Part shown: positions 23,327-60,322 of the stretch, piece after piece
Layout: the number at the start of each line of letters is the position of its first letter
Position numbering within the stretch: position 1 is the first letter of the stretch
NCBI GenBank assembly: GCA_965230935.1
Contig: OZ246400.1
Coordinates: forward strand, 630,359-694,358
DNA: 64,000 nt
From: an uncultured Gammaproteobacteria bacterium
GTDB lineage: Bacteria > Patescibacteriota > Patescibacteriia > Magasanikbacterales > JBBTQS01
Reading direction: 5' to 3'
Program-made: the position numbers and the translations under genes
The notes under the pieces: generated by a model
What the model was told of the DNA's origin: nothing
The model's input: only the letters and a program-made list of their open reading frames with translations
The model's database searches: none

Positions 23327-24742
23327 ATGCGCGCCCGTCATTTTGCACGCTATAGTATCCTCATTGCCGTACTCACTTTATTTGGGTTCGGGTGTAAAGG
23401 CACTCCAGCTGAAGTTCAAGAGCGCGTCAAAGCAGTCTCTCTTGAGTATTGGCGCGTGTTTGATGGTCAAGATGAATTTGAATCACTGATCAATGCGTAT
23501 CGTAAGACCCATCCATACGTGAGTATTAATTACAAAAAACTCCGTACCGAGGAATACGAACGCGCATTACTCGAGGCGTTCGCAGAAGACCGCGGACCAG
23601 ACATTTTCTCCATCCATAACACATGGGTCGGTGGATATGAGAATAAAGTCTTGCCAATGCCGCGAGAACTTACTATTCCAAAATTCACCAAAAAAGGTGG
23701 GCTTGCAAATGAAATCGAAATCACACTTGAAAAAACAAAAACACCAAAACCAAGCTCCATTCGTAAAGCATTCCTCCCGGTTGTTGCAAGCGATGTGGTT
23801 CGTGATATTCAAGTGGGTGATGAGCCGGGTGATGTTGAGAAAAAAGTGCTTGGCTTGCCATTGTCTGTAGACACCATGGCACTCTTTTATAACGAAGATC
23901 TCCTCGCGCAAGCAAATATTCCGGAACCACCAAAAACATGGGAAGAATTTCAAAATGCAGTGAAGACGCTGACGAAAATCGGAAGCGATGATGTAATCCT
24001 CCAATCTGGCGCGGCAATTGGAACGGCACAAAATGTAAACCGAAGTGCAGATTTAATCTCGCTGCTGATGATGCAAAACGGCGCAGTGATGGCGGATAAT
24101 TTTGATAATGTCACGTTTCATCACACGCCACCGGAACTTGCCAACGAACGTGAAATTCCACCAGGAATTGAAGCCTTGATCTTCTACACCGAGTTTGCCA
24201 ATCCACTCGAGCATGTCTACACCTGGAACGCCCGCATGCCGCAAGCATTCGAAGCATTTGCTGACGGCAAAACTGCGTTCTTCTTTGGCTATAACTATCA
24301 TATCCCGCTCTTGGCAACTCGCTCACCAAAGCTCAATTATAGTGTGATGCAAGTACCGCAACTTAATCCGAACAACTCAGTAAACTTTGCATCATATTGG
24401 GTGGAGACAGTTTCAAAGAAAACCGAAGCACCACAGGAAGCATGGGATTTCTTACTCTACTTAAGTCAAGCTGAGCAGGCAAAACTGTATTTAGAAAAAA
24501 CCGGACGACCAACTGCGCTGCGCGAGCTTGTAACTGACCAACTTGAGGATCCGGTGCTCGAACCATTTGTAAACCAGTTGCTGACTGCCAAAAGTTGGTA
24601 TCGCGGTAAGGACAGCATTGCCATGGTTTCTATTATGGAGGATATGATTGAAGAAGCACTTGCTAACGCACCAATTAATCCAAAAGAGGCATTTTCAAAT
24701 GCAATTTCTCGAGCAGTAAGCCGACTCAGTCAAACATATTAG
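23327..24742 (+). CDS. Extracellular solute-binding lipoprotein (sugar-type ABC transporter SBP family 1).
   Basis: 471 aa with a lipoprotein signal and lipobox (LTLFGFGCKG). SBP_bac_1-like features. Confidence 0.65.
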   Translation: MRARHFARYSILIAVLTLFGFGCKGTPAEVQERVKAVSLEYWRVFDGQDEFESLINAYRKTHPYVSINYKKLRTEEYERALLEAFAEDRGPDIFSIHNTWVGGYENKVLPMPRELTIPKFTKKGGLANEIEITLEKTKTPKPSSIRKAFLPVVASDVVRDIQVGDEPGDVEKKVLGLPLSVDTMALFYNEDLLAQANIPEPPKTWEEFQNAVKTLTKIGSDDVILQSGAAIGTAQNVNRSADLISLLMMQNGAVMADNFDNVTFHHTPPELANEREIPPGIEALIFYTEFANPLEHVYTWNARMPQAFEAFADGKTAFFFGYNYHIPLLATRSPKLNYSVMQVPQLNPNNSVNFASYWVETVSKKTEAPQEAWDFLLYLSQAEQAKLYLEKTGRPTALRELVTDQLEDPVLEPFVNQLLTAKSWYRGKDSIAMVSIMEDMIEEALANAPINPKEAFSNAISRAVSRLSQTY

Positions 24743-24743
24743 T

Positions 24744-25487
24744 ATGTCATCCACTTGGTACAAAAAATTTGCACTGGCGCTCATGATTGTATTTATTTTC
24801 GCGCCAACCATGGCACATGCCCAAGGATTTATTCCAAAACCAACTGGAAAGTGTCCGCAAGATAAATCTGGAAATGCGTACGAATGCGTCGAAGGAATAT
24901 GTAGTGGAACAAATATCCCATGTAACTACAGCTTGCAAGACATTCAAAACACCGTGGTCGGGATTGGAAACTGGATTTTTGGTATAATAGGAATCGTAGT
25001 ATTGATCACGCTAATCTACGGCGGATTCCTCTGGCTCATCAGTGCCGGTAACATGGAAATGGTGACTAAAGGAAGAAACATTATGATCGGCTCGATCATT
25101 GGTTTGTTACTTGTACTGAGTGCCGGCGTAGTCACGAAATGGGCGCTCAAGTCAGTGGGAGTAAAAGACGAAATCATTGATAAAATTCCGGTTGCTGGCA
25201 CCACACCATCTGATGGTAAAGGTGGTCCAGCTGCAGATCCTGCTGCTGCCGAATTTGTGTGTTCATGTTCTGCACCTACCGCACCAGTACAATACCAGTC
25301 AACCTTGCAAAAATGTTTTGATCCACCAGCGTCACAGCAGCCGGTTAATAGTACAAAATGTAAAACACTATTTTCCGCTACAGTTGACCCTGCTTTGCAA
25401 GTACACGTTGATGCTGGCCTCATTGACGAAGCTACAAAAACACAGCTCAAAGGACTCATCAATTGTTCAGCAAAAGATTCTTGCTAA
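24744..25487 (+). CDS. VirB2/TrbC-like (CPR T4SS-pilin type) protein 1, with a Cys-rich C-terminal extension.
   Basis: Signal peptide. Two hydrophobic helices IGNWIFGIIGIVVLITLIYGGFLWLISAGN and IMIGSIIGLLLVLSAGVV. Paralogous to the four following ORFs. The extra C-terminal domain has 8 Cys. Confidence 0.6.
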   Translation: MSSTWYKKFALALMIVFIFAPTMAHAQGFIPKPTGKCPQDKSGNAYECVEGICSGTNIPCNYSLQDIQNTVVGIGNWIFGIIGIVVLITLIYGGFLWLISAGNMEMVTKGRNIMIGSIIGLLLVLSAGVVTKWALKSVGVKDEIIDKIPVAGTTPSDGKGGPAADPAAAEFVCSCSAPTAPVQYQSTLQKCFDPPASQQPVNSTKCKTLFSATVDPALQVHVDAGLIDEATKTQLKGLINCSAKDSC

Positions 25488-25496
25488 CCCATTACT

Positions 25497-25880
25497 ATGC
25501 ATACGCTCACTCGCATTTCAATCGTCACACTCATTAGCGTAATTATTATTGGGCTGCTTGGCGCCATCCTAATCTCCCCAACAAACGCCCTAGCTGTGGA
25601 AGGTGTTGTTGAACTTGAAAACCCACTCAACTTAGACGAGGATCAACCGATTGCTGACCTAGCTGGACGAGTCATCCGAGCGTTCTTAGGTATCATTGGT
25701 ATCATTGGATTGGTCATCTTTATTTACGGTGGTGTCCTCTGGATGACCTCTGCTGGTCATGCTGAGCGCGTCACCCGAGGAAAAGACTTGTTTGTTTGGT
25801 CAATTGTAGGACTTGTGGTAATATTTAGTAGCTATACCATAGTGAGTTTTGTTCTTACCAAAGTTATTAGTAATGAGTAA
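25497..25880 (+). CDS. VirB2/TrbC-like pilin paralog 2.
   Basis: 127 aa. Signal/TM, then IRAFLGIIGIIGLVIFIYGGVLWMTSAGHAERVTRGKDLFVWSIVGLVVIFSSYTIVSF. Confidence 0.65.
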   Translation: MHTLTRISIVTLISVIIIGLLGAILISPTNALAVEGVVELENPLNLDEDQPIADLAGRVIRAFLGIIGIIGLVIFIYGGVLWMTSAGHAERVTRGKDLFVWSIVGLVVIFSSYTIVSFVLTKVISNE

Positions 25881-25958
25881 TCGTGTATTGACATCGTGTG
25901 ATATTCTTTGTCGCACAACGCTAATATACGATCAAATAAGAGGAAGGGGGTGAAACCT

Positions 25959-26363
25959 ATGACCACAACATTACAAAAAGCCGGAGTATGGTTTATGGTA
26001 GCGACCATGGCAGCACTTGTCGGTGTTACTATCGCGCCAACCATGAGTCATGCCGCAATTGATACTGACCTTAAAAAATTCCAAGGTACCACCGGACTTG
26101 GTAATAAGGACCTTAAAGAGACGATTGGTGGTATTGTAAAAGTCATTCTCGGTTTCCTCGGAATTTTAGCGGTATTGATCGTGCTTTGGGCAGGATTCCT
26201 CTGGATGACTGCAACCGGTAACGAAGATCAAATTGCAAAAGCAAAAGGTATCTTGATCGCCGGTGTGATTGGTTTGTTGATTATTATGTCAGCATACGCA
26301 ATTACCACATTCGTACTGAAGAATTTTGGAACAGAGACAGGAACAGCGTTCGGAGATCTCTAG
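25959..26363 (+). CDS. VirB2/TrbC-like pilin paralog 3.
   Basis: SD GAGGAAGGGGG then the ATG at 25959 (MTTTLQKAG...). Core motif ILGFLGILAVLIVLWAGFLWMTATGNEDQIAKAKGILIAGVIGLLIIMSAYAITTFV. Confidence 0.65.
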   Translation: MTTTLQKAGVWFMVATMAALVGVTIAPTMSHAAIDTDLKKFQGTTGLGNKDLKETIGGIVKVILGFLGILAVLIVLWAGFLWMTATGNEDQIAKAKGILIAGVIGLLIIMSAYAITTFVLKNFGTETGTAFGDL

Positions 26364-26400
26364 CGATACACTTGTCCGTACGATACATCTCACGTATACT

Positions 26401-26895
26401 ATGCAGCAGGGAATCCCCCTGCTGTTTAGTTTCATCACTATGTTGTTATCTATCATCACACGTGCGCCATGGCGCGCAATTACGATTGGATTATTTACAC
26501 TCGGAGTACTCTTCACTCCGCTGCTCGCAGTTCAAGCAGCACCGGGCGATGCTGCCAAAGGAAACTTTGGTCTTAATGCCGTAGGTGAAAACCTTAAGGG
26601 TGACCTCCCGTTTGCCGGAGAAGACCCTTCAACCGCTGGATCAAAGCTTCCACAAATCATCGGTCAAATTTTCCGTACACTTCTTTCCATTCTTGGTTTG
26701 ATCTTCCTGATCTTGATTGTCTATGGTGGTATGCGCTGGATGTTAGCGCGAGGTGATAGTGCTGAGGTTAACATGGCAAAAGAAATTTTGATCCATGCCT
26801 TTATTGGACTTATCATCGTAATCGCCGCCTTTAGTATTGTGAGTTTTGTCTTTGATAAAGTGGTTGTGCAAACTACCGAAGTACCAGCACCATAA
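26401..26895 (+). CDS. VirB2/TrbC-like pilin paralog 4.
   Basis: Track ORF 26326-26895. I placed the start at ATG 26401 to avoid overlap with paralog 3. Core motif LLSILGLIFLILIVYGGMRWMLARGDSAEVNMAKEILIHAFIGLIIVIAAFSIVSF. Confidence 0.6.
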   Translation: MQQGIPLLFSFITMLLSIITRAPWRAITIGLFTLGVLFTPLLAVQAAPGDAAKGNFGLNAVGENLKGDLPFAGEDPSTAGSKLPQIIGQIFRTLLSILGLIFLILIVYGGMRWMLARGDSAEVNMAKEILIHAFIGLIIVIAAFSIVSFVFDKVVVQTTEVPAP

Positions 26896-27353
26896 TGTTT
26901 ATGAAAAAACTTTTACTCGCTTTATTTGCTACCCTCCTTCTTCTCCCAAGCACTCCGGCTTTTGCACAAGAAGGCGGAGGTTTATATACCGGCACTCTTG
27001 ATGAGCTTGGCAAGGTTACGTATGGCGAAGATTTTAAAGAAGCCAAGCCGTTATCAGAAACCATCGGTGGGATCATTAAAGTATTACTTCAAGTCCTTGG
27101 TCTTCTGTTTATCATCCTATTGATCTATGGAGGTTTTATCTGGATGCTCTCTCGTGGAAATGAAAATGAAGTGACACGTGCAAAAGATATTCTTCAACAT
27201 GCACTGATTGGACTGATTATTGTTATCATCTCGTACTCTATTACCGTATTTGTCTTTAAGGGACTGGGTGAGGCCACTGGCACAGCATTTGAGAATCTTG
27301 AAGAAGATCCAAGTGGTGGCGCGGCTGCAGGTGGTGGAGGCGTCATACCATAG
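26895..27353 (+). CDS. VirB2/TrbC-like pilin paralog 5.
   Basis: 152 aa. Signal peptide. Core motif LLQVLGLLFIILLIYGGFIWMLSRGNENEVTRAKDILQHALIGLIIVIISYSITVF. Gly/Ala-rich tail. Confidence 0.65.
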   Translation: MFMKKLLLALFATLLLLPSTPAFAQEGGGLYTGTLDELGKVTYGEDFKEAKPLSETIGGIIKVLLQVLGLLFIILLIYGGFIWMLSRGNENEVTRAKDILQHALIGLIIVIISYSITVFVFKGLGEATGTAFENLEEDPSGGAAAGGGGVIP

Positions 27354-27364
27354 ATAGAGATAGT

Positions 27365-27393
27365 AAAAGCGCCCCGATTCGGGGCGCTTTTTT
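27365..27393 (+). terminator. Intrinsic terminator of the pilin array.
   Basis: aaaagcgcccc-gattc-ggggcgctttttt. Confidence 0.7.
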
Positions 27394-27451
27394 GATACTT
27401 GAACATTTTGCCAATCTCACGTATACTCCCACATGCAAAAGTCCATAGCGG

Positions 27452-28655: not shown

Positions 28656-29615
28656 TTATTTTTTGCGATGATATTTTTTGTGCACAGTACGCAATCCCTT
28701 ATCAGTGATGTGCGTATAAATTTGTGTTGTGGTAATTGAACTATGCCCCAACATCTGCTGTACTGCCCGAATATCAGCGCCATTACGCAACAGATCAGTT
28801 GCATAAGAGTGACGCAACGTATGTGGGGTTACGGTCTTGGTAATACCGGCTTTGCGCGCAAGTCTCTCAATAATTCGTTGAACCGAGCGATCACTCAGTG
28901 GCCTATCTTCTGCAACGCGCGTCTTTGCCTTTTGTGCGCGATCATGCGATACAAATAGATAGGGGTTCATGTCTTTGCGCTTCTCAAGATAGCGCTTGAT
29001 CCAAAACCGTGCCTGATCTGACAAAAACACCACACGATTTTTCCCACCCTTCCCTTTAACGGTAAACTCATCGCGTTTGAGATTCACATCATCTTGCGTC
29101 AGTTTTACCAACTCTGAAACACGCAGTCCAGTGCTAAACAACAGCTCTACAATTGATTTATCACGCAACTGAGTCAAACTCAGTGACCGATCATTCACAT
29201 TGCCGGCTGCATCTTGAATTGGAGCTTGCAAAAACCGATCAAGATCCCCGGCTTCTAAAAAGGTCACGTCACGATCAGGCATTTTTGCCAATTCGATCTT
29301 TTCTGCTGAAAGTGTTTGTACATCACGCTTCGCCAAATACTTTAAAAACGAACGCAAGGCGATCAAATGATAATTCTGCGTATTTTTCTTGAGTGGTTCA
29401 CCATGAACATCAACCAATCGATTCAACCACAATCGATATTTTCGAACGTTTTCGAGTGTGATTTGTTTTGCACTAATATTGCCAACAAATTGCAAAAATC
29501 GATGTAAATAAAAATCGTAATTGCGAACCGTCCGCGCGCTTCGTCCGCGCTCCACTTCACAATACTCCAAAAAATCTCGGATGTATGGTTGTAATTTCTT
29601 TGCTGACTTTGCCAT
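28656..29615 (-). CDS. Tyrosine site-specific recombinase (XerC/XerD-like integrase family).
   Basis: N-terminal SAM-like domain YIRDFLEYCEVERGRSARTVRNYDFYLHRF. Catalytic R...HTLRHSYAT...LGHSSITTTQIYTH (R-H-R-Y). I placed the start at MAKSAKK (29615). The track ORF is 28656-29690. Confidence 0.85.
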   Translation of the reverse strand: MAKSAKKLQPYIRDFLEYCEVERGRSARTVRNYDFYLHRFLQFVGNISAKQITLENVRKYRLWLNRLVDVHGEPLKKNTQNYHLIALRSFLKYLAKRDVQTLSAEKIELAKMPDRDVTFLEAGDLDRFLQAPIQDAAGNVNDRSLSLTQLRDKSIVELLFSTGLRVSELVKLTQDDVNLKRDEFTVKGKGGKNRVVFLSDQARFWIKRYLEKRKDMNPYLFVSHDRAQKAKTRVAEDRPLSDRSVQRIIERLARKAGITKTVTPHTLRHSYATDLLRNGADIRAVQQMLGHSSITTTQIYTHITDKGLRTVHKKYHRKK

Positions 29616-29706
29616 ACCCACATTGTACGACACCTGCAACCGCAACACAACATGCAGCGATAGATAAAATACGGTATACTGACCATACATTATTAATCAT
29701 AATTTT

Positions 29707-32334
29707 ATGACAAGCTTGTCGCTATCATCTGCGCTGCGCTATACATTTCTTGTTGTTTGCGTTGCACTCTTAAGTGTTCTGTTGGCAACTCCTGCAGCAG
29801 CACAAGATGCTGATACTACTTCTGTCAGTGAAGCAGAAATTTTACAAGAAGAAAACGAAGCTGCAGAGCAAGACACTCGAGTTACTGCTGAAGACTTAAA
29901 CGCCGAAGAAGCAACGATTTTGCCAGACAGTCCATGGTATGGCTTTAAGCGCTTTGGTCGTGCATTTGGTGAATTTATTACATTTGACCCCGTCAAAAAA
30001 GCAGAGAAAAAACTACAAAACGCAAACAAGGCATTTGCAGAGTCGCTTCAACTCTTACAACGAAAAGGCAATGATGAAGAGGCAATTGCTGATGCCGCTA
30101 AAAACATCGAGCGAGCGACAGGCAAAATCGATAGTGTGCGACAGGCTGCCCCAAGACTTAAAGAAATTCGAACAGAAAAAAAAGAAGCAGTCGAAGCACT
30201 TACTGAAAAAATTCTCAAAACCGGATTTACCCACCAAAAAGTCATTGATCAAGTGGAGGAGTTTGTGGACGAACGTCCGGTGCAAGGCGCACAACAAATT
30301 CTTGAGCATATCCATACCGCACGTGAGCGAAGCGAACAAAGCACTGGTGAGTTGATTGGCACGATTGAGGATAATCCCGAGGCACTGCGCGAACGACTCA
30401 ATCATTTCCTCGATAATGAAGGTGGGAGTGATTATCGTCATATCAAGCATGGAGAGTTTTTGCGGCGATTAGAAGACCATCTTCCACAACAAGCTGCTGA
30501 TCGAGCACGCGAAGCCATTGCTGCGGCACGCGAGCGTCAGTTTGAACACCTCAGCGAAAAAATTGAACGTCGCCGCGGAGAAGACCGCGACAAATTCTTT
30601 GAAGGAATCTTTGACTATGCAGAACATCTTCCCGGAGATCATGCTGCCAACTTCCAAAACTTTGAGGAGTTTAAACATGTGATTAAAGATCCTGAGCTTG
30701 CAGCGAGACTTGAGGATGGAAAAGATATTTTTGCTCGTCGGTTTAAAGAGCGTCTTGAGCACCATGAGGAACGGTTTGACGACGAAGCGACTCGCGAGCG
30801 ATTTCGTGAACGCGAATTCGAACGCTTTGCTGGAAATGAAATCGAGCAAATCCAAGCTCAAAAAGACTTGATTAAACGTATTGAGTTTGAGTCAAAAGAA
30901 TTTGAAGCAAAAATCCGAAAACAAGAGCAAGAATTTGAGAAAAAAGCAGCAGCATCATTTCGAGAACGATTTACCGATGCAGATTCTACTGCGCTTGTTG
31001 ACCGCTTTGAGGCCTTGAGTGCACAAGCGGCAAAAAACCCAACTCCGGCAGTATTTGAAGCACTCGACGCACTGGAGCGTGAACTGACTCCTGAGCAAAA
31101 ACGATTTGTACAAGAAATTGAGGACAAAGCGCGTGGGGAACTTGAACGAAAATTTAAAGAACAAGGCGATGAATTCTTCAAACGCATTTCTACTAATGTG
31201 GCTGAAGATGTGCGAGCAATTGAGCAGCTTGGCCAACGATTTGATCACTTCGATGTTCCACCAGAGTTGATTGACCGTGCCGTACGCGAACACCAACGCC
31301 ACCAAGAAGAAAAGTTTGAGCGTCTAGAGGATCGTGAGTTTGAACGAGCGGCACGTGAGCGTATCCGTATTGAAGAAGAATTTCGTGCACGACTTGATGC
31401 GGTGGATTCTGAAGTGGAACATAGCCAACTTCTTGAAGAGAAACGTCGATTTAACGAAGCAAACCTTGAACGCGAACTTGAAGCGCGTAAACGTATCTTT
31501 GAAGAACGCATGGAAGATAGTGGGCCGTTTTGTGACGAGCGCTGTCAGGAAATCCGCCGCGAGCAATTCTTCCAAGATTTTGAACGCCACCGCAGCGATG
31601 TCAAGACTTCGACTGATCAGGATATTGTTCATGAGCGAGATGAATTCCGTCGCATGATGGAATTTGACCGATTAGAAGCTGAGGCACACGAGCGCGGTGA
31701 AGAAGGTGAATTTTTCCCACCACACCCAGGTGAATTTGGACCAGAGTTTGATCGAGGACAACCACCATTTGATCGTCCTGATTTCGAACGAGCACCGTTT
31801 GATGAACGGCCTGCATTTGAAACTGACCCTGATGAAGAAGTAAGACGATTTGACGAGTTACCACGTGATTTTGATACTCCAACACTTCCAGTATTTGATC
31901 ATCCAGAACGTCCCGAGATCCCGGAACGACCGTTTGATGAGCGACCTGAAGAGTTTCATCGTCCAGAACCAATCATCCGAGACCTCCCACGATTTGATGA
32001 TAGCCCTATCGACAAACCACGCGAATTTGATCGTCCAGACCCAGAGCATGCGCTCCCTGAGTTTGTTCCAGAACGTCCAATGCCGTCTCCTGATGCATTT
32101 CGACAAGGACCGCCGGCAGAAAGTTTTGTCGCCCCATCACAACCACCTTCCCGAGAATTTGATCAACCGTTTGGCCCACGGCCAGGTGAACCATTTATTG
32201 ACGGACCTGGGTTCGATGTGCCACCACCTGATTTCCCACAACCAGAGCTCCACTCATCATCCGGAAGCACGTGGGACTACATTGTTGAACAGTTACGCAG
32301 CTTCGTAAATCGCGCAAACGCAGGGCGATTCTAA
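29707..32334 (+). CDS. Large secreted DUF5667-type protein with a long E/R/F-rich coiled region and a Pro/Phe/Asp/Glu/Arg low-complexity C-terminus.
   Basis: 875 aa. Signal peptide. LPDSPWYGFKRFGRAFGEF motif typical of DUF5667 N-termini. Hundreds of residues of ERFxE-type repeats, then FDRPD/FDERP repeats. Confidence 0.55.
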   Translation: MTSLSLSSALRYTFLVVCVALLSVLLATPAAAQDADTTSVSEAEILQEENEAAEQDTRVTAEDLNAEEATILPDSPWYGFKRFGRAFGEFITFDPVKKAEKKLQNANKAFAESLQLLQRKGNDEEAIADAAKNIERATGKIDSVRQAAPRLKEIRTEKKEAVEALTEKILKTGFTHQKVIDQVEEFVDERPVQGAQQILEHIHTARERSEQSTGELIGTIEDNPEALRERLNHFLDNEGGSDYRHIKHGEFLRRLEDHLPQQAADRAREAIAAARERQFEHLSEKIERRRGEDRDKFFEGIFDYAEHLPGDHAANFQNFEEFKHVIKDPELAARLEDGKDIFARRFKERLEHHEERFDDEATRERFREREFERFAGNEIEQIQAQKDLIKRIEFESKEFEAKIRKQEQEFEKKAAASFRERFTDADSTALVDRFEALSAQAAKNPTPAVFEALDALERELTPEQKRFVQEIEDKARGELERKFKEQGDEFFKRISTNVAEDVRAIEQLGQRFDHFDVPPELIDRAVREHQRHQEEKFERLEDREFERAARERIRIEEEFRARLDAVDSEVEHSQLLEEKRRFNEANLERELEARKRIFEERMEDSGPFCDERCQEIRREQFFQDFERHRSDVKTSTDQDIVHERDEFRRMMEFDRLEAEAHERGEEGEFFPPHPGEFGPEFDRGQPPFDRPDFERAPFDERPAFETDPDEEVRRFDELPRDFDTPTLPVFDHPERPEIPERPFDERPEEFHRPEPIIRDLPRFDDSPIDKPREFDRPDPEHALPEFVPERPMPSPDAFRQGPPAESFVAPSQPPSREFDQPFGPRPGEPFIDGPGFDVPPPDFPQPELHSSSGSTWDYIVEQLRSFVNRANAGRF

Positions 32335-37952: not shown

Positions 37953-40216
37953 ATGTTTTTTCTAAAAAAAGCCAGTATCAAAACGCGAGCAATGATTGAT
38001 GTTTCTTTTATCATTTTGTTCGTTGGATTGGTATTGTTTGTCACAGCGTATAGATCTGGAAAACAGACGTTTCAAAACCAAGTCATCAATGATTTAGAAA
38101 TTTTAGTCAATGTCCGAAAAGACCAAGTAAATTCTTTTTTAGATTCTATAAAAAATCGAGTAGTTGATTTTTCTTCAGACGGCTTTATTCAAAACAGCGT
38201 CCTAGATATCGAGAGAGGGAATCAAAGCCAATCAGCCCTAAAAACATATTTAAACAACCAAAAAAGTCATTGGATAACACTATTGATGGAATAAGTATTT
38301 TTGATTCCTCAGGTAATTTGGTAGTCTCTACCTTAAATAGAACACGAGATGATTTTGAACAGGAAATATCTTTTTTGCGCACGCTGCCCTATGTTTCTAT
38401 TGGAGAAGCGCACATACACCAGGACTTTGATGCAGCATCTCCCGACAAAGATGAAGGTATTAGTGGGTATATAGATGCTGTTTCACCAATCATTAGATCT
38501 ACTGATAAGTATCATATTGGATTTATTATCAATCATATACGTTTAGATGGATTGGAAGCAGTACTAATAGGAAAAACACAAAAGGGCGCGACGTTAACTG
38601 AATGCGATTTTGACTTTTCTTCCTCCAATACTCATGTAATAACCTCAAAAGGAAGGCATCTAGCCATGACATGTCGACATGGTCTTGAAAACTACGTATT
38701 CGATGTCTTACCTGTAAAAAAATGTGCACAAGGAGAAAAAACTTCGACACACTACACTGATTCTCGCGGGCATGATATTTATGGTGCATCAGCTTGTATG
38801 GATAATGGGTGGGTGGTTTTGACAGAAATAGATAAGTCTGAAATTGATGATTCATTGAATAAAATTTTACGTGGAATGACGCTAACCGGATTATGGTCAA
38901 GCGTGATGGTACTTATACTAGTATACTGGTATACACGTCGTCAGTTACAACCTATCGTATCTCTTACCCAAAAAATTGCAAAAAGAAAGGTTGGAAAACA
39001 AATTAAAAAAATAGATGGTAAATTTCCCGGAGAAATTTCATTACTTGTCCAGACTTTCAATACACTGTCTAGAAAAATTCTAAATAGGGAAAAACTCCTC
39101 ATCAAGCAAAAAGTGAAGGCTAGTAATTTAGCAAAGGAGCTTGAAAAATTCAAGCTTGCGGTTGACATGGCCTCGGACCAAATCGTGATTACTGATGCCG
39201 ATGCCAAAATTTTGTATGCAAATCTATCTACGAAAAAAATTACCGGCTTTTCAGTAGATGAAATGATCGGGAAAAAATCAGGAACTTCGGATCTGTGGGG
39301 TGGTCAAATGGACGAAAAATTCTACAAAAAACTATGGAATACTATTAAGATAAAGAAGTCGACCTTTTCTGGGGAGATTACAAATAAACGCAAAAACGGC
39401 GAAATTTACCAAGCATACAGCACGATCTATCCAATTGTAGATACCGAACAGAATGTTAAATTCTTTGTCGCAATTGAGCGCGATATCACAAAAGAAAAGG
39501 ACGTAGAAAAAATGAAAAGTGATTTTATCGCCGTAGCTTCTCATCAATTACGGGCACCGATCTCCGGAATTAAATGGACAATAGAGCTACTCCAACAAGA
39601 AAAGGGTATTCCCAAGAGAAGCAAAAAGCTGATAGTGGGGGCAAACGAAAGAATGGATAATTTGATTGAGCTTGTTGACCACTTATTGAATGTATCACGC
39701 ATAGAAAAAAATACGAGTGTTAAACCTAAAAAATTTGATCTTGTTGCTTCTTTGCGCGAAAATATAGAAGGATTTTCTCCCCGTACCAAACGAGGGAATC
39801 TTTCAGTATCCTTTGATCCAAAACCCAAAAAAATAATCTTAATGAGTGACGAAAAAATAATCAAAACTATTTTTGATTCTATATTCTCAAACGCCATCAT
39901 CCATACATTGGCTGGAGGATCAATTGCCGTGACAATGCGAAAACAAAAAGACACCTGCATATTGAAAATAAGAGACACTGGTATCGGGATACCGCGTAAA
40001 GATCAAAAAAATATTTTCTTAAAGTTCTTCAGAGCAAAGAATGCTAAAAAAATTAACACTGCTGGAACGGGGTTAGGCTTGTATACTGCAAAAATGGCGA
40101 CCGTATTACTCGGTGGAAAAATTAGCTTCACATCACAGGAAGGCAAGGGGACGACAATGACTGTGGTATTACCATTAAAATCAAAGTCTAAAAAAGTCGG
40201 AAAACACCTCGTATAA
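37953..40216 (+). CDS. Sensor histidine kinase (TM, extracytoplasmic sensor, PAS, HisKA, HATPase_c), interrupted by a +1 frameshift in an A6 run at 38260-38265.
   Basis: ORF 37953-38294 (TM plus sensor N-terminus) and ORF 38270-40216 (PAS, then the H-box SDFIAVASHQLRAPISGI, then the G-boxes DTGIGI and GTGLGLY). They fuse into one frame of about 760 aa if one A is added to the ccAAAAAAg run. Confidence 0.75.
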
Positions 40217-40226
40217 CAAATTATCT

Positions 40227-40634
40227 ATGAAATCATACAACAAGATAAAAAATGGGAAAACCTCTTTACGAAAGAAGATTCTATTTATAGAAGATGACGA
40301 ATTTTTACAGAATGTGTATCAATATGAGTTTGGAAACAAAAACATCACAGTTATTATGGCATCAGATGGTGAAGATGGTCTAAAAAAAGCTGAAAAAGAA
40401 AGGCCGGATCTCATCCTGTTAGATTTAATATTGCCAAAAATGGATGGATTTTCAGTGCTTGAAGAAATTAAAAAAGATCCTGAACTCAAAAATATCCCGG
40501 TCATTGTCCTTTCCAACCTAGGCCAAAAAAAAGACGTTCAAACTTGCAAAAAAATGGGTGCGGTCGACTACATTGTTAAGATGAACTCTCGATTTAGCGA
40601 GGTGGTCGAAAAAATCAACCAAAACCTTTCGTGA
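40227..40634 (+). CDS. Single-domain response regulator (REC only, CheY-like).
   Basis: 135 aa. KKILFIEDDEF ... LILLDLILPKMDGFSVLEEIK ... IPVIVLSNLGQ holds the phospho-acceptor Asp pocket. No output domain. Confidence 0.8.
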   Translation: MKSYNKIKNGKTSLRKKILFIEDDEFLQNVYQYEFGNKNITVIMASDGEDGLKKAEKERPDLILLDLILPKMDGFSVLEEIKKDPELKNIPVIVLSNLGQKKDVQTCKKMGAVDYIVKMNSRFSEVVEKINQNLS

Positions 40635-40732
40635 ACATGAATGCCTTTTCTTAGGTTGTTTACAACTTTGCAGGAGCGATGGGACACCATTCGAATATTT
40701 TTTGGTATATATAGTTGATTAGAAATAGCTCA

Positions 40733-41038
40733 TTATTCCATCCAACTTTCGTGCCCAATTAATACGTCTAAACGACTTCTTAAGTCTGCCAATTCTACTT
40801 CTTTTTCTGCAACACTTGTGTCAAATTCTTCTTTGGTCATACCTAAATCAACAGGATTATTTCTCTTATAAAAAGCCAAAAAATCTCTTAGTCGCAAATA
40901 CTCTTTTCTTTTTTCACTCATTTCTTCCTTAAGTCCTTTTTGTATTTCTCCAGACTCATTTCTATTTCTTGCCTTTTCAGACCATGCATCTACCCTTCCG
41001 CCTAAATCAGAATTAAAACCCTCTCTTTGTTCTAACAT
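40733..41038 (-). CDS. Hypothetical small protein.
   Basis: The track ORF extends to 41104 through AT-rich low-complexity codons. MLEQREGFNSD... is the more plausible start. No motif. Weak call. Confidence 0.3.
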   Translation of the reverse strand: MLEQREGFNSDLGGRVDAWSEKARNRNESGEIQKGLKEEMSEKRKEYLRLRDFLAFYKRNNPVDLGMTKEEFDTSVAEKEVELADLRSRLDVLIGHESWME

Positions 41039-41422
41039 ACTTTTGCTTACTCTATTTATCAATAGATTAGTTAGGTGTAGTTTATATAAAAATAACATAA
41101 GCATTTGTGAATGTAAACATCACCTCTCGACAGTTCTAAACATATTATCGTACCGTTGCAGGAGCAACAAGACTACATCCATCAAAGCTTTGTTAATCTG
41201 ATCGATAAATTCAAATCACTTACAAAATACTAAGTTTAGTAAAATTTCAATTTTCAAAATCAACTTTCACAACTTTTCCACATTTTGTGGACAGAAATTG
41301 CAAAACTGTGGATACATTTAGTATACACCAACAATTTTGTATAGACTTGTGTATACAAAAAATCGTAAGAATAGCGACTTTTTAAGCTTAATTTAAACAA
41401 AAAATAGCAAAATTTGCCGAAC

Positions 41423-41451
41423 TTGACAAAACCCTTTTTTTCGTGTATACT
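41423..41451 (+). promoter_or_regulatory. Consensus sigma70 promoter driving the non-coding unit upstream of dksA.
   Basis: TTGACA (41423-41428), a 17-nt spacer, TATACT (41446-41451). Confidence 0.5.
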
Positions 41452-41457
41452 AGTAAC

Positions 41458-41883
41458 AGTTCCTTAGAAAACCATTTCAAGTACGCATTAAAACGGGTGA
41501 CACCAAAAAAACATACGTGTCACAAGTCTTAAGAGCCGTGCTTCGATCGAATCATCCTCTTCCATTGCTACTGTTCTTAATTGCAAGGAAATCAAAATAA
41601 AACAAAGCGGGCGTAGTAGCTCCGCGAATAGCTCCGAGGTGCCCTATAGTCTTCCCTGTCTTGTGCAGGTCGAGGACGCGTGGATCACACCTTTCGAATG
41701 GTAGGAATGGCAAACAAACAGCCGATTGTGGGCTTGTTTGGACCGATGATGGTGGTCAGTGTACATCTTTGCGGTGTATAGCGATCACCATCATATGGAC
41801 CACGCTCACTCAACAGGCATCGGGGACTTACCTCCGGCCATCTATACACCTAGGGCGTCAGGACGTAAGTCCCTTGTTTTTTT
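41458..41883 (+). ncRNA. Candidate structured ncRNA or long regulatory leader (about 420 nt), family not identified.
   Basis: Bounded by the consensus promoter and a strong terminator (ggggacttacc ... ggacgtaagtccc then TTGTTTTTTT, 41822-41883). No ORF of 60 aa or more with an SD. Internal helices include gtgacac/gtgtcac (41507-41526) and a 9-bp stem gatgatggtg/caccatcat (41745-41796). It lacks RNase P, tmRNA and SRP RNA signature motifs. Confidence 0.35.
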
Positions 41884-41933
41884 ACTTCATTTTGCTATAC
41901 TTGCTACTGTATTTAGTATTTAGCTCCAATCAT

Positions 41934-42311
41934 ATGGCTGGACTCTCTAAAAAATTTGTTGAGGAGATGAAAGAGCAGCTTTTGGCTCAAAAAGAGAAAA
42001 TTGAAGGGGAATTGTCCCAATTTGCAACCCGCACTGGCGATAGTGATGATTTTAAATCTACATTTCCAGATTACGGAAACAAAGACGATGAAAATGCCGA
42101 AGAAGTCGCGACATACGAGACTAATCTTCGCCTTGAAGAAACACTGGAAAAAGAACTCCGTGATATTTCAAATTCGCTCAAAAAAATGGAGGATGGTACC
42201 TATGGCGTCTGCAAATATTGCAAAAAGCCCATCCCAGAAAATCGTCTACGCGCACGTCCAACATCGGGCTCTTGTGTTGAATGTAAAAAAACCTTGACCC
42301 AAGAACTCTAA
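41934..42311 (+). CDS. DksA/TraR-family C4 zinc-finger protein.
   Basis: 125 aa (MAGLSKKF...). Coiled-coil N-terminus. C-terminal CKYC...17 aa...CVEC zinc finger. The track ORF 41661-42311 includes the non-coding leader. Confidence 0.75.
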   Translation: MAGLSKKFVEEMKEQLLAQKEKIEGELSQFATRTGDSDDFKSTFPDYGNKDDENAEEVATYETNLRLEETLEKELRDISNSLKKMEDGTYGVCKYCKKPIPENRLRARPTSGSCVECKKTLTQEL

Positions 42312-50190: not shown

Positions 50191-52830
50191 CTATTTTGCC
50201 TGACCCCAACTCTTTCCAATTCCAGTGTGCACCTCAATCGGTACCGCAAGTTGTAACACGTCACGCATCTGCTGCTCTACCACTTTTGCAAATGCTTTGG
50301 CTTTTGCTGTTTTCACTTCAAAAACTAATTCATCATGTACTTGCAAAATCATAGTAATGTCATCATCATCTTTACTCTTTCGATCCAGTGCAATCATGGC
50401 CAACTTCATTAAATCAGCTGCTGTGCCTTGAATAGGGTGATTAATCGCCATGCGCTCTGCTGCGGCACGCAACTGAAAGTTGCCAGTTGCAATTTCTGGA
50501 ATATACCGACGACGACCAAACAAGGTCTCCACATACCCATGTTTCTTTGCGTGTGTAATGGTCTTATCTAAATACTGCTTTACTCCTGAAAACGCTTCAA
50601 AATATTTATCAATAAACTCCTGGGCTTGTGCACGCGAGATGCCGGTTCTGCTTGCCAACCCAAATGACCCCATACCGTACAACACGCCAAAATTTACCTC
50701 TTTGGCACTCCGACGCATGTCATGCGTAACTTGATCAAGTGGTACGTCGTGAATTTTAGCTGCAGTAGATTGATGAATGTCCTCGCCCTTGTTGAAAATC
50801 TTCATCATGGCCTTGTCTTTAGCCAAAGAGGCCACGATACGCAGCTCAATCTGAGAATAATCAGCCACCACCAATGTCTTTCCCTTTCCTGCAACAAACG
50901 CATCTCGAATCTTACGCCCCTCTTGCGTTCGGATTGGAATATTTTGCATATTCGGATCAGAAGACGAGAGACGGCCGGTGGCAGCAACGGTTTGGTTAAA
51001 CGTGCTATGAATCCGATGACTCTTTGGATGCACAAGGGTAGGCAACACATCAATATACGTGGTTTTGAGCTTCATCAACTCCCGATATTCCTCGATCTTG
51101 GCAATAATTGGATGGAACTCACGAAGCTTTTCAAGCTCACTTGCTGCAGTTGAATATCCGGTCTTTCCTTTTTTAATACCATCCGTTGGTAATCCCAATC
51201 CATCAAACAACACCTCACGCAATTGACTGCTTGAGTTAATGTTGAACTCTTGGTTTGCGTCTTTGTAAATCGCTTTAGTCAATTTATCAAGTCGACTGTC
51301 CGTACTTTTAGCAAGTGTTTTGAGTACTGAATCATCAAGAGCCACACCAGCCATTTCCATACGCGCCAACACCTCAATAAGTGGCCCCTCAATATCATTG
51401 TACAGTTGCTGCAGATCTTCTTGAACTTCTTTTTTGATATGTGTGGCGATATTTAAAATGGCATGCGCTTCTTGTACGAGCTGTTCTTTTGGTTTGCCAA
51501 ACAAGCTTGCTTGCTTATCATCTTTTGCAATTTTTGTACCAAGATATTTAAGGGCAAGCGCTGGAAGATCATGGGCACGGCTTTCTGAGTGAATCAAATA
51601 CGAACCCACCATAATATCAAAAAGATGCTTTGGCTCTTGCAAACCACATTGCCAAAATACTTTCAAAGACTCTTTGATATTATGGCCGATATAGTGCGCT
51701 GATGTGGTAAGCACCTTTTCCCAACCTTTTACTTGTGTGCTTACATACCAGCTATTCTTTTGACTTACAATCAGCACACCGCACAATGTGACATCAAGAA
51801 AATTCCCAAGACTTACATCAAGTACAAAGCCAACGTGTTTGACTGACACAATCGCAGCAATAGCATCTGCCAATGTTTTCTGCGTTATCTCAACACATTC
51901 TGGTGCGGTTGCTACTTGAGCGGTAACCTTATGTTTCATACCAGGAATCCGAGAAAGTAATGAAGTAAATTCAAACTCTTGAAATAACCTCAACAGCGCA
52001 TCTTCATCTACTGGCTGACGCGCAACAGTTTTAAGTGAAAACATAATTGGGACATCTTGATGAATCGTCGCCAATTCTTGAGAAAGATACGCATCTTCTT
52101 TTCCTGCAAGAAGTTTTTTACGTAGTGCCGGCTTAATCCGCTCGTCCTCTTGTTCTGCTGCATAATAAATATCATCCAAAGTGGGAAATACAAGTAACAA
52201 TTCGGTAGCACCCTTGTCTCCAATACCTCTTACCCCTGGAATGTTGTCACTACTATCGCCCTTGAGCGCCTTGTAATCAATCACTTGCTCAGGAGTGAGT
52301 CCATGATATCGCTCTTGCACGGCAGCACGGTCATACATAACCAAATCACTCATGCCTTTACGCATGGTGTTAACCACCACATGATCATCAACTAATTGTA
52401 GAGCATCCATATCACCGGTAACAATAATGGTATTTGTGGCATCTTTTTCTTTCCTCACCTTTTTGACAAGTGTTCCAATACAATCGTCTGCTTCAAACCC
52501 TTCCTTCTCGTATATGGTGATATTAAACGCATTCACCAAATCATAAATCAATGGGATTTGCTCATACAACTCATCATCAGCCTTTTCTCGAGTTGCTTTA
52601 TAATCTTCGTATTGCTCGTGACGAAACGTGGGGCCGGCTAAATCAAATGTCACGGCAATATGGGTGGGGGAGAGCTCTTTGAGTACTCGCAATAAAATAG
52701 ATGCAAATCCATAAACGGCATTTACCACACGACCATCCTTAGTTTTCAGCGGCGGGATAGCATGATAGGCACGATGAATAATTGCGTGACCGTCCAAGAT
52801 AACAAAAGTGTTTGGTGTATTTTGAGCCAT
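50191..52830 (-). CDS. polA: DNA polymerase I.
   Basis: 879 aa. N-terminal 5'-3' exonuclease (TFDLAGPTFRHEQYEDYKATR) and C-terminal family A polymerase motifs (RRSAKEVNFGVLYGMG, QVHDELVFE). Confidence 0.95.
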   Translation of the reverse strand: MAQNTPNTFVILDGHAIIHRAYHAIPPLKTKDGRVVNAVYGFASILLRVLKELSPTHIAVTFDLAGPTFRHEQYEDYKATREKADDELYEQIPLIYDLVNAFNITIYEKEGFEADDCIGTLVKKVRKEKDATNTIIVTGDMDALQLVDDHVVVNTMRKGMSDLVMYDRAAVQERYHGLTPEQVIDYKALKGDSSDNIPGVRGIGDKGATELLLVFPTLDDIYYAAEQEDERIKPALRKKLLAGKEDAYLSQELATIHQDVPIMFSLKTVARQPVDEDALLRLFQEFEFTSLLSRIPGMKHKVTAQVATAPECVEITQKTLADAIAAIVSVKHVGFVLDVSLGNFLDVTLCGVLIVSQKNSWYVSTQVKGWEKVLTTSAHYIGHNIKESLKVFWQCGLQEPKHLFDIMVGSYLIHSESRAHDLPALALKYLGTKIAKDDKQASLFGKPKEQLVQEAHAILNIATHIKKEVQEDLQQLYNDIEGPLIEVLARMEMAGVALDDSVLKTLAKSTDSRLDKLTKAIYKDANQEFNINSSSQLREVLFDGLGLPTDGIKKGKTGYSTAASELEKLREFHPIIAKIEEYRELMKLKTTYIDVLPTLVHPKSHRIHSTFNQTVAATGRLSSSDPNMQNIPIRTQEGRKIRDAFVAGKGKTLVVADYSQIELRIVASLAKDKAMMKIFNKGEDIHQSTAAKIHDVPLDQVTHDMRRSAKEVNFGVLYGMGSFGLASRTGISRAQAQEFIDKYFEAFSGVKQYLDKTITHAKKHGYVETLFGRRRYIPEIATGNFQLRAAAERMAINHPIQGTAADLMKLAMIALDRKSKDDDDITMILQVHDELVFEVKTAKAKAFAKVVEQQMRDVLQLAVPIEVHTGIGKSWGQAK

Positions 52831-52864
52831 AGAACATCATCACCATACCACTAAAAACAAACAA

Positions 52865-52899
52865 GGGCTACCACGGTGACGCGAGTCGATGTGGTACCC
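52865..52899 (-). terminator. Terminator of GC-rich cassette D1, 34 nt upstream of the polA start codon.
   Basis: Minus strand: gggtaccac-atcgactcgcgtcacc-gtggtagccc followed by TTGTTTGTTTTT. It is preceded by the CA tract ACAACACAACATTTACAACC. Confidence 0.5.
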
Positions 52900-52933
52900 A
52901 AGTTGGTTGTAAATGTTGTGTTGTCCTCGGTGC

Positions 52934-53703
52934 TCAGCGGCGCTCCAGCGGACCGAAGAGGTGATCGCTGATCTGCTCGAGCATGCCGCCCGGCAGGTCC
53001 GTGCTGCGGCCCAGCTCCTGGGCCGTGCCGGAAGCACTCCAGACCTTGCCATCACGCCGGTAGTACACGTCCATGACCCGGTCGTGCGGATCCAGGTATG
53101 CGATCTGCAACGCGTCGCAGCCCTCGATGGCGATGGGCTCACCGTGCTCGGCGACCATCTCCCAGTCGGTCCCGGCTTCATGCGCAGCGGGAAGCCTCGA
53201 CGGGTGAGCACCGCGACCCCCGGCGTGGGACCACCCAGGTGGGCGTTCCGGAGTCGGTTGTCACCCAGGTACATGGCCAACACCGAGGCCCCATCACGCA
53301 CCAGATCGTACTGCTGCAGGTACCCGGGAAGGATTGCGCCGCTGGTGAGCAGCTGCTTGCAGAGCTTGGTGACGGCGTCGGCCACCCAGCCCTGGCACAC
53401 CCCCATGCCCAACACCTGATCGAGCGTGATCAGCGCCCGTTTGCTGTGGCCGTTTGTGCCACACACCTGGATGCTGTACACGCGCCCGTAGCGCGGATCC
53501 GGATCCTCGATCATGGCCGGTGCGGAGTTGGTCTCGTCGCTGTTCTCGGCGAACAACACCTCCACCACCAACCCATCGGGGTTCCCCTCATGCACGATCT
53601 GATCGTGCCTGATACGAACGCCGAGCAACTCGTCTCCGACGTGCGCGTCGAGAATGCCCAGCAGGCCGCCCGAGAGCTTGCCTGCCTTCCACGTCTGCCG
53701 CAT
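52934..53703 (-). pseudogene. GC-rich cassette D1: hypothetical protein (about 256 aa if repaired) interrupted by a -1 frameshift at a G5/C5 run (53216-53220).
   Basis: Frame X (from the ATG at 53701-53703, MRQTWKAGKL...) reads as real protein for about 165 aa, then degenerates into S/R/T-rich text. Frame Y (... MVAEHGEPIAIEGCDALQIAYLDPHDRVMDVYY ... FGPLERR, stop at 52934) reads as protein. Adding one G in the G5 run joins the frames. About 68% GC. A consensus promoter (TTGACA, 16-nt spacer, TACACT; plus strand 53751-53778) and SD TAAGGAGGT lie upstream. Confidence 0.45.
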
Positions 53704-53834
53704 GGCAAACCTCCTTATCTACATTGCTACGCCAGACGCGCAGTAGTATGAGTGTAACTAAAATAAGGAAAATGTCAAGGAGTTTGGCGCAAATTCAAAA
53801 TATTTCCTTATGAAAACCCCTAAAATCACAAAAG

Positions 53835-53872
53835 CCACATGCGTTGTTGATGCCGGTAGGCAAACGCAGTGG
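53835..53872 (-). terminator. Terminator of GC-rich cassette D2.
   Basis: Minus strand: ccactgcgtttgcc-taccggcatc-aacaacgcatgtgg followed by CTTTTGTGATTTT. It is preceded by the CA tract TTACACACAAAACACATACAACC (plus strand GT tract 53904-53926). Confidence 0.45.
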
Positions 53873-53995
53873 CTCTTGGCTCTCGCTAAGTCGCGAGTGC
53901 AAAGGTTGTATGTGTTTTGTGTGTAATCCGATCCGCACGACCCTCAGCGCGAAGGCCGAGGACTACCGCGCCTTACGGCGCCGGCAGTGGCCTGA

Positions 53996-54991: not shown

Positions 54992-55104
54992 GATGAAGTC
55001 TCCTAACAGTTTCTACCCGACAGCGCGTCGGGGCTGGAAATGACGTCTCGTCCCCTCACTCCCCCTCACACACTTCTGGCGGGTTTGGAAACAAAGCTGA
55101 CGAG

Positions 55105-55133: not shown

Positions 55134-55244
55134 GAGCAAAATTACGCCTAAAATTAAAGAAGTTTTTTCACACAAACAAAAAATGCGGACAATATTTGTC
55201 TCACATTGAGAAAAAAGCTCGAATCTGCTATCCTGGGGATGCTG

Positions 55245-55316
55245 GCACCGTCGCCAAGTGGTAAGGCAGGGGTTTGCAAAACCTCTATTCGCGAGTTCGA
55301 TTCTCGCCGGTGCCTC
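55245..55316 (+). tRNA. tRNA-Cys (anticodon GCA).
   Basis: Hand fold. Acceptor GGCACCG/CGGTGCC. 3-bp D stem. Anticodon stem GGGGT/ACCTC with loop TTGCAAA. T arm GCGAG-TTCGATT-CTCGC. Confidence 0.85.
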
Positions 55317-60046: not shown

Positions 60047-60322
60047 AGGCGCTATCTAATATTATATTTTTATTTTTTAATTATAGTTGTAGTAGTAGTG
60101 TCTGTGGATAGTGTGGAGAACGTACATTTTTGTTTTGTTTTTCTAGTAAAGTTTTGTGTTTTGTGTTTTTGAGTGGTGTGGGTGGATTGTGCGAAGATGT
60201 GTGCGAAGTGTGTGTGAAATTTTGTTTTTGATTTTTGGGTGTGGGTAGTCCTTTTCTTTTGTGTGTGTTTTGTGAATGTATTTTTGTATTTGTGCAAAGG
60301 CTACACACAGCATGTACGCAGG
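60047..60322. other. dnaA-dnaN intergenic origin-type region: AT-rich 35-bp block, a DnaA box, and a long GT-rich (plus) / CA-rich (minus) tract.
   Basis: AT-only block at 60055-60090. TGTGGATAG at 60103-60111 is an 8/9 match to the DnaA box TGTGGATAA. About 200 nt follow with almost no C on the plus strand (ttttgtgttttgtgtttttgagtggtgtgggtgg...). Confidence 0.5.

Follow-up and report, generated by a model that had tools for sequence, protein, structure and literature searches.

Why does a single patescibacterial locus encode several divergent pilins in a row, and what do these proteins build? In the only genetically tractable patescibacterium, a type IV secretion system (T4SS) and its pilin array are essential for epibiotic life. 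Here, we consider five consecutive open reading frames (ORFs), P1–P5, at positions 24744-27353 (+ strand) of a 64-kb stretch of contig OZ246400.1 (assembly GCA_965230935.1), hereafter the window, from an uncultured bacterium placed in the Magasanikbacterales. Our favored explanation, which we judge to be probable, is that P1–P5 are five old, non-interchangeable VirB2-like pilin paralogs of a Patescibacteria T4SS, with P3 as the major subunit and the others as specialized or minor subunits. A comparison of related loci turns the description "many divergent pilins" into specific, testable roles through collinear orthologs, a best-conserved copy with its own signals, and a binding-protein/Cys-rich-pilin pair found in 72 of 74 loci. 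The same comparison draws attention to a candidate component of host recognition in this large, uncultivated clade.

Family, architecture, and precedents of the array

Each of the five proteins exceeds the gathering score of the T4SS_pilin family, PF18895 (26.6 bits), with scores of 32.4-48.6 bits and alignments that run from profile positions 3-5 to 68-71 of 71. Since all five pass, a chance match is discounted. An earlier reading of this DNA from its letters alone (the sequence-only reading) had proposed five tandem, diverged pilin paralogs of the VirB2/TrbC type at this place, and both the location and the family call are borne out. Against the TrbC/VirB2 family itself, PF04956 (cut-off, 27.9 bits), P2 (24.5 bits, E 3.1e-5) and P5 (20.5 bits) score near but below the threshold while aligning nearly end to end with the profile; the Pfam scan reported no PF04956 match for P1, P3, or P4. 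Judged by these alignments, P1–P5 are related to the PF04956 family, with scores that stop short of membership. NCBIfam NF045849, which describes a pilin-like conjugal transfer protein of Mycoplasma integrative and conjugative elements (ICEs), gave 34.1 bits for P3 and 17-29 bits for the others, below its cut-off of 40 bits. None of P1–P5 matched PHROGs at E ≤ 0.01, and the type IV prepilin motif (class III signal, G↓F(M)TLIE) was absent from all 305 pilin ORFs examined, which come from the window and from related loci. The family is very large and common, as a pilin-profile search of the metagenomic protein universe retrieved 92,193 representatives at 50% identity. The top matches in the representative library were single "proteins" with 2-17 pilin domains (P0030-P0044 and others), for example, one of 552 amino acids with 6 domains and one of 1775 amino acids with 17. 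Either these are genuine poly-pilin fusions, or gene calling with the wrong genetic code has joined the members of arrays.

P1–P5 share an alignable core of ~78 residues (consensus LGILGI..LI..IYGGFLWM.S.GN...VT.AK.ILI...IGL.IV.SAY.IT.FVL), in which paralogs are 30-58% identical; over the full length, identity to P1 is 26-33%. The signal peptide and two hydrophobic helices described by the sequence-only reading are present in every member. An AxA-type site ends the N-terminal hydrophobic segment (P1–P5 in order: MAHA↓Q, NALA↓V, MSHA↓A, AVQA↓A, and PAFA↓Q, with arrows at the predicted cut), and hydropathy analysis places two further strongly hydrophobic 19-mers after it. The AlphaFold2 (AF2) model of P5 is a helix-loop-helix hairpin (residues 53-85 and 90-128) with a predicted local distance difference test score (pLDDT) of 87-94. 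Taken together, the AxA sites, the hydropathy, and the P5 hairpin match the cleavable signal and two-helix build expected of VirB2/TrbC pilins. An unrelated family and an unsupported cleavage-site or transmembrane architecture had been named beforehand as outcomes that would count against the proposal; what was found instead is a family score above threshold in all five, no PHROGs match, and the predicted architecture. Foldseek returned nothing at E ≤ 0.001 when the P5 model was searched against the PDB, and its top matches were ion channels and ATP synthase subunit c, i.e., generic helical hairpins; a two-helix hairpin is too simple a fold for Foldseek to discriminate. Matches from a PDB profile search to designed "Pizza" beta-propeller repeats were rejected as spurious, having arisen via the repeated short motif GxxWxxxxGN.

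Outside the core, the proteins differ in kind. P1 contains 10 cysteines, four in the exposed N-terminal segment (positions 37, 48, 53, and 60) and six in a 105-residue C-terminal tail, versus zero in P2–P5, and its N-terminal cysteines are kept in homologs. The sequence-only reading was right that one paralog is Cys-rich but miscounted its "8-Cys domain"; the Gly/Ala-rich tail that it noted is that of P5.

Arrays of this kind have been cataloged before. A search of 3,035 Patescibacteria genomes with the PF18895 and PF04956 models found 441 arrays, distributed over 383 assemblies and each comprising 2-11 VirB2-like pilin genes with a mean identity of 25% and a maximum of 54% among array members, and located a pilin gene near virB4 in 1135 of 1948 Patescibacteria assemblies; the role proposed for the arrays was adaptation to different hosts (Quinonero-Coronel et al. 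2025, PMC12102498). In that study, an array consists of at least two pilin genes (PF18895 or PF04956, i-Evalue < 0.001, >50% profile coverage) that lie in tandem or with one gene between them in a Patescibacteria genome. P1–P5 provide five contiguous matches under this definition and show the same low within-array identity. Experimental evidence comes from Southlakia epibionticum, where transposon sequencing found a six-gene array in the T4SS cluster, SEML1_0014-0019, to be essential for epibiotic growth, with all six copies individually essential (Wang et al. 2023, PMC10633639); a 2025 review restates the essential pilin array (PMC12857230). The P1–P5 array is a further example of the published kind, and the same three publications support the earlier suggestion that pilin arrays typify Candidate Phyla Radiation (CPR) bacteria. 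S. epibionticum also carries SEML1_0024, a separate, non-essential pilin gene adjoining rpsO (supplement of PMC10633639), so Saccharibacteria, too, can have solitary pilins apart from the main array.

Table 1. Coordinates of the pilin genes and associated elements in the window
Feature	Position	Strand	Description
Solute-binding protein gene	23327-24742	+	MalE-type, orphan; PF13416 88.3 bits, PF01547 81.4 bits
P1	24744-25487	+	247 aa; long Cys-rich VirB2-like pilin; PF18895 36.8 bits
P2	25497-25880	+	127 aa; short pilin without C-terminal tail; PF18895 44.0 bits
Shine-Dalgarno ahead of P3	25944-25953	+	AAGGGGGTGA; only strong one in the array
P3	25959-26363	+	134 aa; best-conserved paralog; PF18895 44.9 bits
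Promoter-like element between P3 and P4	26372-26400	+	TTGTCC-N17-TATACT; conserved in relatives
Hairpin directly 3' of P3	26403-26425	+	stable, with U-rich tail; -20.7 kcal/mol, z -6.1
P4	26440-26895	+	151 aa; 34-residue exposed N-terminal segment; PF18895 48.6 bits
P5	26901-27353	+	150 aa; Gly/Ala-rich C-terminal tail SGGAAAGGGGVIP; PF18895 32.4 bits
Intrinsic terminator closing the array	27365-27391	+	12-bp GC-rich stem, then U run; -21.8 kcal/mol, z -4.9 (folding)

Three of the start codons in Table 1 have competitors. The longest ORF for P3 opens with a TTG at 25908, and the ATG at 25959 is preferred because the strong Shine-Dalgarno and the public gene call agree on it. For P4, the public gene call begins at an ATG at 26401 (164 aa); since that codon lies inside the hairpin and is missing in two of the related loci (L002 and L004), the ATG at 26440 is preferred. 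P5 has an alternative ATG at 26895. The strong terminator that the sequence-only reading saw at the end of the array is absent from the list of a terminator scan and was confirmed by folding; tRNA-His and then tRNA-Arg follow it.

Conservation of the five paralogs and signals around P3

The array was compared with 80 loci encoding relatives (39-76% identity) of the solute-binding protein specified directly upstream of P1, each scanned with a hidden Markov model of the pilin core. In the six closest loci, every one of P1–P5 has a positional ortholog in at least five. Core identity to these orthologs is 50-85%, compared with 30-58% to sister paralogs; the assignment is clearest for P1–P4, and the score margin of the P5 ortholog over other paralogs is small in several loci. 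On this comparison, the paralogs are older than the compared species, and their order has been kept. P3 is the best conserved of the five, with an ortholog core identity of 76-85% and the lowest nonsynonymous divergence (dN 0.11-0.16). Between orthologs, divergence is faster in the exposed N-terminal segments (identities of 12-65%) and tails (0-57%) than in the core (44-85%). Core dN/dS ratios are 0.09-0.24 where computable, synonymous divergence (dS) being saturated or undefined between paralogs and closest orthologs. The core thus appears to be under purifying selection, as a rough sign and only where measurable, and the dN/dS among paralogs that had been suggested as a check yields no value for the same reason. 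Repeat scans detected neither long stretches of DNA in common nor recent duplication, gene conversion tracts, or invertible or shufflon-like repeats in the array; together with tandem-repeat scans, they turned up only codons of the shared motif.

Copy number ranges from 1 to 15 pilins across related loci. In distant genomes, a P3-like pilin heads a downstream array that is set 2-7 kb from the binding-protein/pilin pair; housekeeping genes fill this interval in L014, the one locus examined. Larger arrays also occur directly after the binding-protein gene, with 15 pilins in L017 (11311-18878) and 11 in L063 (3547-9458), and the extra copies in both are mostly P3-like.

P3 is also distinguished by its flanking signals. 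Its Shine-Dalgarno is kept as (A/G)GGGGGTGA-N4-ATG in most of the six relatives. Between P3 and P4, the promoter-like element reads TTGTAG-N17-TATACT in four relatives (L001-L004), so that the -10-like TATACT is kept. The hairpin that follows P3 shows compensatory changes in 10 of 13 pairs across 7 genomes. Beyond the close relatives, a hairpin of -14 kcal/mol or lower follows 36 of 42 P3-like genes (86%) versus 13 of 169 other internal pilin genes (8%; p = 9.6e-18). This survey used a sliding-window scan of hairpin energy, as a stricter terminator detector missed even known terminators. The hairpin may be an internal terminator or attenuator, a 5' stem-loop of a P4–P5 transcript, or both. With a conserved promoter-like element and a covarying hairpin lying between P3 and P4, the proposal that all five genes sit on one transcript is doubtful and probably wrong.

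Two sequence features near these signals were also recorded. An element upstream of tRNA-His (27399-27427, TTGAAC-N17-TATACT) has the context CACGTATACT in common with the element ahead of P4, which hints at a local promoter consensus of this organism. In the close relatives, the promoter-like spacer between the P3 and P4 orthologs contains a perfect 12-bp palindrome, AGGAAATTTCCT (L001 12300-12390, L002 13052-13135, L003 12999-13080, and L004 13069-13155), which could be an operator; the spacer of the window differs.

The favored explanation can be put as a working model. Sec would export each P1–P5 precursor, and signal peptidase I would cleave it at the AxA site. The mature protein would sit in the membrane as a helix-loop-helix hairpin that exposes its variable N-terminal segment and any C-terminal tail on the extracellular side. 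By analogy to VirB2 and TraA, a VirB4/VirB6-type machine encoded elsewhere in the genome would extract the hairpins and polymerize them into a pilus or a conduit spanning the cell wall. P3 would be the major, most highly expressed subunit. P1 would act as a specialized subunit, co-produced with the orphan sugar-type binding lipoprotein encoded upstream, its extracellular Cys-rich tail probably stabilized by disulfides, and P2, P4, and P5 would be minor or accessory subunits, with P4 and P5 under their own promoter. Filament formation, the major and minor roles, the P1 disulfides, and any physical link between the binding protein and the pilins are inferred parts of this model.

An orphan binding-protein gene paired with a Cys-rich pilin

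The gene ahead of P1 encodes a solute-binding protein well above the cut-offs of PF13416 (SBP_bac_8, 27 bits) and PF01547 (SBP_bac_1, 26 bits), and its stop codon lies 1 nucleotide (nt) before the P1 start. Its only cysteine, Cys23, falls in a lipobox-like LFGFG↓C, so the protein is probably a lipoprotein, in agreement with the solute-binding lipoprotein named in the sequence-only reading. The closest solved structures are sugar and oligosaccharide binding proteins of ATP-binding cassette (ABC) systems. No sugar ABC permease (BPD_transp_1) was found for it in the window or among the two nearest upstream neighbors in ~55 related loci; the only nearby ABC system is Liv-type and has a binding protein of its own.

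All relatives of the binding protein in the comparison set come from metagenome-assembled genomes of Patescibacteria: Uhrbacteria, Magasanikbacteria, Falkowbacteria, Buchananbacteria, and the Parcubacteria group. The Uhrbacteria/Magasanikbacteria/Falkowbacteria group is what we take to be class ABY1 in GTDB. A pilin gene follows the binding-protein gene directly and on the same strand in 72 of the 80 loci. Eight loci are exceptions; six of these break off within 700 bp of the binding-protein gene, leaving 72 of 74 informative loci, and the gap from the binding-protein stop to the pilin ATG has a median of 9 nt. The genes upstream of the binding-protein gene vary (ComM-like in 26 loci, GalU in 12, and SMC in 5). 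Given this near-invariant pairing alongside variable upstream neighbors that include no sugar ABC permease, we regard the orphan binding protein and the pilin as the conserved unit.

The partner is a particular kind of pilin. Those adjacent to the binding-protein gene have a median of 4 cysteines, versus 0 in 228 other pilins (p = 2.6e-24); 29 of the 72 have at least 8, and they are typically long. P1 conforms to this clade-wide pattern. A full-text literature search found no description of a partnership between a binding protein and a VirB2-like pilin in the CPR, and as far as the searched literature shows, this module and the hairpin after P3 are undescribed details. A broader proposal, to which we give only a low probability, is that Uhr-, Magasanik-, Falkow-, and Buchananbacteria build a T4SS-type pilus from a P3-like major pilin and fixed minor pilins, in which the binding-lipoprotein/Cys-rich-pilin module couples the pilus to the recognition or capture of host-surface glycans. 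On this proposal, the binding protein might be carried on the pilus, or dock to it, and serve to recognize the host; alternatively, the pair might be a device for nutrient capture that is linked to the pilus.

Alternative explanations, related systems, and genomic setting

Could the five genes instead be interchangeable variants, used singly or recombined for antigenic or host-range variation, as proposed for the VirB2 copies of Bartonella and Anaplasma and raised for Patescibacteria in PMC12102498? The paralogs do show their greatest differences in the exposed segments at either end, these segments outpace the core between orthologs, and the number of copies varies among related loci. To this extent, the variable segments noted in the sequence-only reading hold. 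The antigenic role attached to them is disfavored, however, by the closer resemblance of each paralog to its positional ortholog than to any sister paralog, by the lack of long shared tracts, conversion signs, and invertible or shufflon-like repeats in the array, and by the apparent purifying selection on the core. The individual essentiality of the six S. epibionticum copies likewise argues against redundancy. We consider an interchangeable pool unlikely; collinear orthology, per-copy essentiality in S. epibionticum, and the regulatory signals of P3 together favor a division of labor. Host adaptation at the level of species stays plausible because the surface-exposed segments evolve faster. 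The five might also belong to an unrelated small-membrane-protein family, namely holins, bacteriocin or immunity proteins, or type IV pilus pilins. They share their small size and two hydrophobic helices with many holins, and weak, sub-threshold matches to assorted membrane-protein families were seen. This possibility is effectively refuted by the curated PF18895 threshold passed by all five proteins, the PHROGs search, the absence of class III prepilin signals, and a chromosomal housekeeping context in which phage genes are lacking.

Several observations do weigh against a T4SS pilus with P3 as its major subunit. The partners VirB4, VirB6, and VirD4 were found neither among ORFs of at least 110 aa in the window or 10 kb beyond either end nor among the recurrent neighbors of related arrays. 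For these neighbors, a Pfam scan of large ORFs covered the top 25 families, by itself too few to exclude a rare VirB4, and the recurrent clusters were therefore scanned individually as well. The search for VirB4/VirB6/VirB11 partners that the sequence-only reading had advised therefore came up empty in the window and within 10 kb of its ends, and co-encoding with T4SS machinery, as seen for VirB2/TrbC pilins, is lacking over this range. With no such gene near the array, its assignment to a T4SS depends on other species. We know of no organism in which a filament of PF18895 proteins has been seen, and "pilin" is a name given by homology. Neither a PDB sequence search nor Foldseek gave a significant match to solved VirB2 or TraA pilins, and the AF2 model of P1, built from five sequences, is of low confidence (pLDDT 60), too uncertain for a structure search or for interpreting the Cys-rich tail. 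The division into major and minor subunits, including P3 as the putative major pilin, is deduced purely from conservation and from RNA and translation signals. Moreover, in many distant loci, the hairpin after P3-like genes has no clear U tract and could have another role there. Several of these points would suit small bitopic or hairpin membrane proteins that form no pilus and work with the binding lipoprotein, for example, as a membrane anchor or channel for a substrate that it captures, in an envelope or uptake system independent of a T4SS: the clade loci scanned show no T4SS ATPase linked to the array, filaments of PF18895 proteins have not been observed, the binding protein lacks a nearby ABC permease partner, and the pairing of its gene with a pilin gene is both close and deeply conserved. 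Yet in Saccharibacteria, PF18895 genes lie inside a T4SS cluster and are essential together with it, a pilin gene lies near virB4 in 1135 of 1948 Patescibacteria assemblies (PMC12102498), the similarity to TrbC/VirB2 is near threshold and extends along the whole protein, and the link to the binding-protein gene is confined to the first pilin of the array. We hold such a T4SS-independent system to be quite improbable.

With the published Patescibacteria arrays (PMC12102498, PMC10633639), P1–P5 have in common the Pfam family (PF18895, with or without PF04956), a tandem layout of small, sequence-divergent proteins of the same architecture, a chromosomal location in the origin-near half of the genome, and low paralog identity. 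Unlike those arrays, P1–P5 are not beside virB4, virB6, or prgI; they are headed by an orphan MalE-type gene and a long Cys-rich pilin that neither paper mentions; and they show a conserved internal hairpin and promoter-like element after the best-conserved paralog. The emphasis of PMC12102498 is on Microgenomatia and Saccharimonadia, whereas P1–P5 come from the Uhrbacteria/Magasanikbacteria/Falkowbacteria group. With the VirB2/TrbC/TraA pilins of PF04956 (Agrobacterium T-pilus and F-pilus), they share a cleaved N-terminal signal, two hydrophobic helices, a short polar basic loop, and a mature length of ~70-100 residues. They differ from these in their PF04956 scores, in a monoderm-type CPR host, in the absence of a VirB5/VirB1 or relaxase context, and in giving no evidence of cyclization or acetylation. 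The classical systems have one major pilin, whereas here there are five paralogs with long exposed extensions, such as the tail of P1.

The multi-copy VirB2 genes of Anaplasma and Bartonella are likewise tandemly amplified and diverged, with differences concentrated in exposed parts, but these copies are tied to antigenic variation in animal pathogens, whereas P1–P5 are ancient, collinear, and individually conserved. The Mbov_0395-family proteins of Mycoplasma ICEs (NF045849) resemble P1–P5 in having a VirB2-like hairpin in a wall-less or monoderm lineage, and P1–P5 match nearly the whole 80-position profile; they differ in that P1–P5 remain below the cut-off and Mbov_0395 is single-copy in mobile elements. 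In the pap and fim operons of chaperone-usher fimbriae, stoichiometry is set by a hairpin that follows the major-subunit gene. The layout here is similar, with a highly conserved subunit gene with a strong ribosome-binding site, then a stable hairpin, and then diverged, specialized subunit genes. The fold and assembly machinery are unrelated, however, and the analogy is a regulatory one only.

The window is otherwise ordinary, origin-proximal chromosome, with polA, pnp, ruvB, PBP1A, rpsO, lspA, and the Liv-type ABC system; housekeeping genes surround the array, and the ORF scan found no phage genes. A dnaN and dnaA pair lies at 58928-61720 (- strand), the GC skew changes sign near 60 kb, and rnpA and yidD follow just beyond. 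From the dnaA/dnaN position and the skew change, the array lies ~33 kb from the likely origin, which matches the origin-proximal placement of T4SS genes (PMC12102498). CPR-typical content includes DUF5667, present in an 875-aa protein at 29707-32334 (+ strand) with a signal-like N-terminus and a low-complexity, highly charged C-terminal half (rich in Glu, Asp, Arg, Pro, and Phe); the position of this gene is conserved in the same assembly. About 1 kb past tRNA-His and tRNA-Arg, at 28656-29690 (- strand), is a tyrosine recombinase (Phage_integrase plus an N-terminal SAM-like domain). Because relatives keep the array in synteny, this enzyme is probably of the XerC/D type and not an island marker. 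Two stretches depart from the base composition of the window. Positions 38000-42000 have a GC content of 0.36; a gene for a PAS histidine kinase lies there at 38270-40216, and one for a response regulator at 40227-40634. At 52800-55100, adjoining tRNA-Cys (55244-55316), GC content rises to 0.53-0.55 versus ~0.44 elsewhere, and ORFs are open in many frames, none with a Pfam match; this stretch may be a foreign island.

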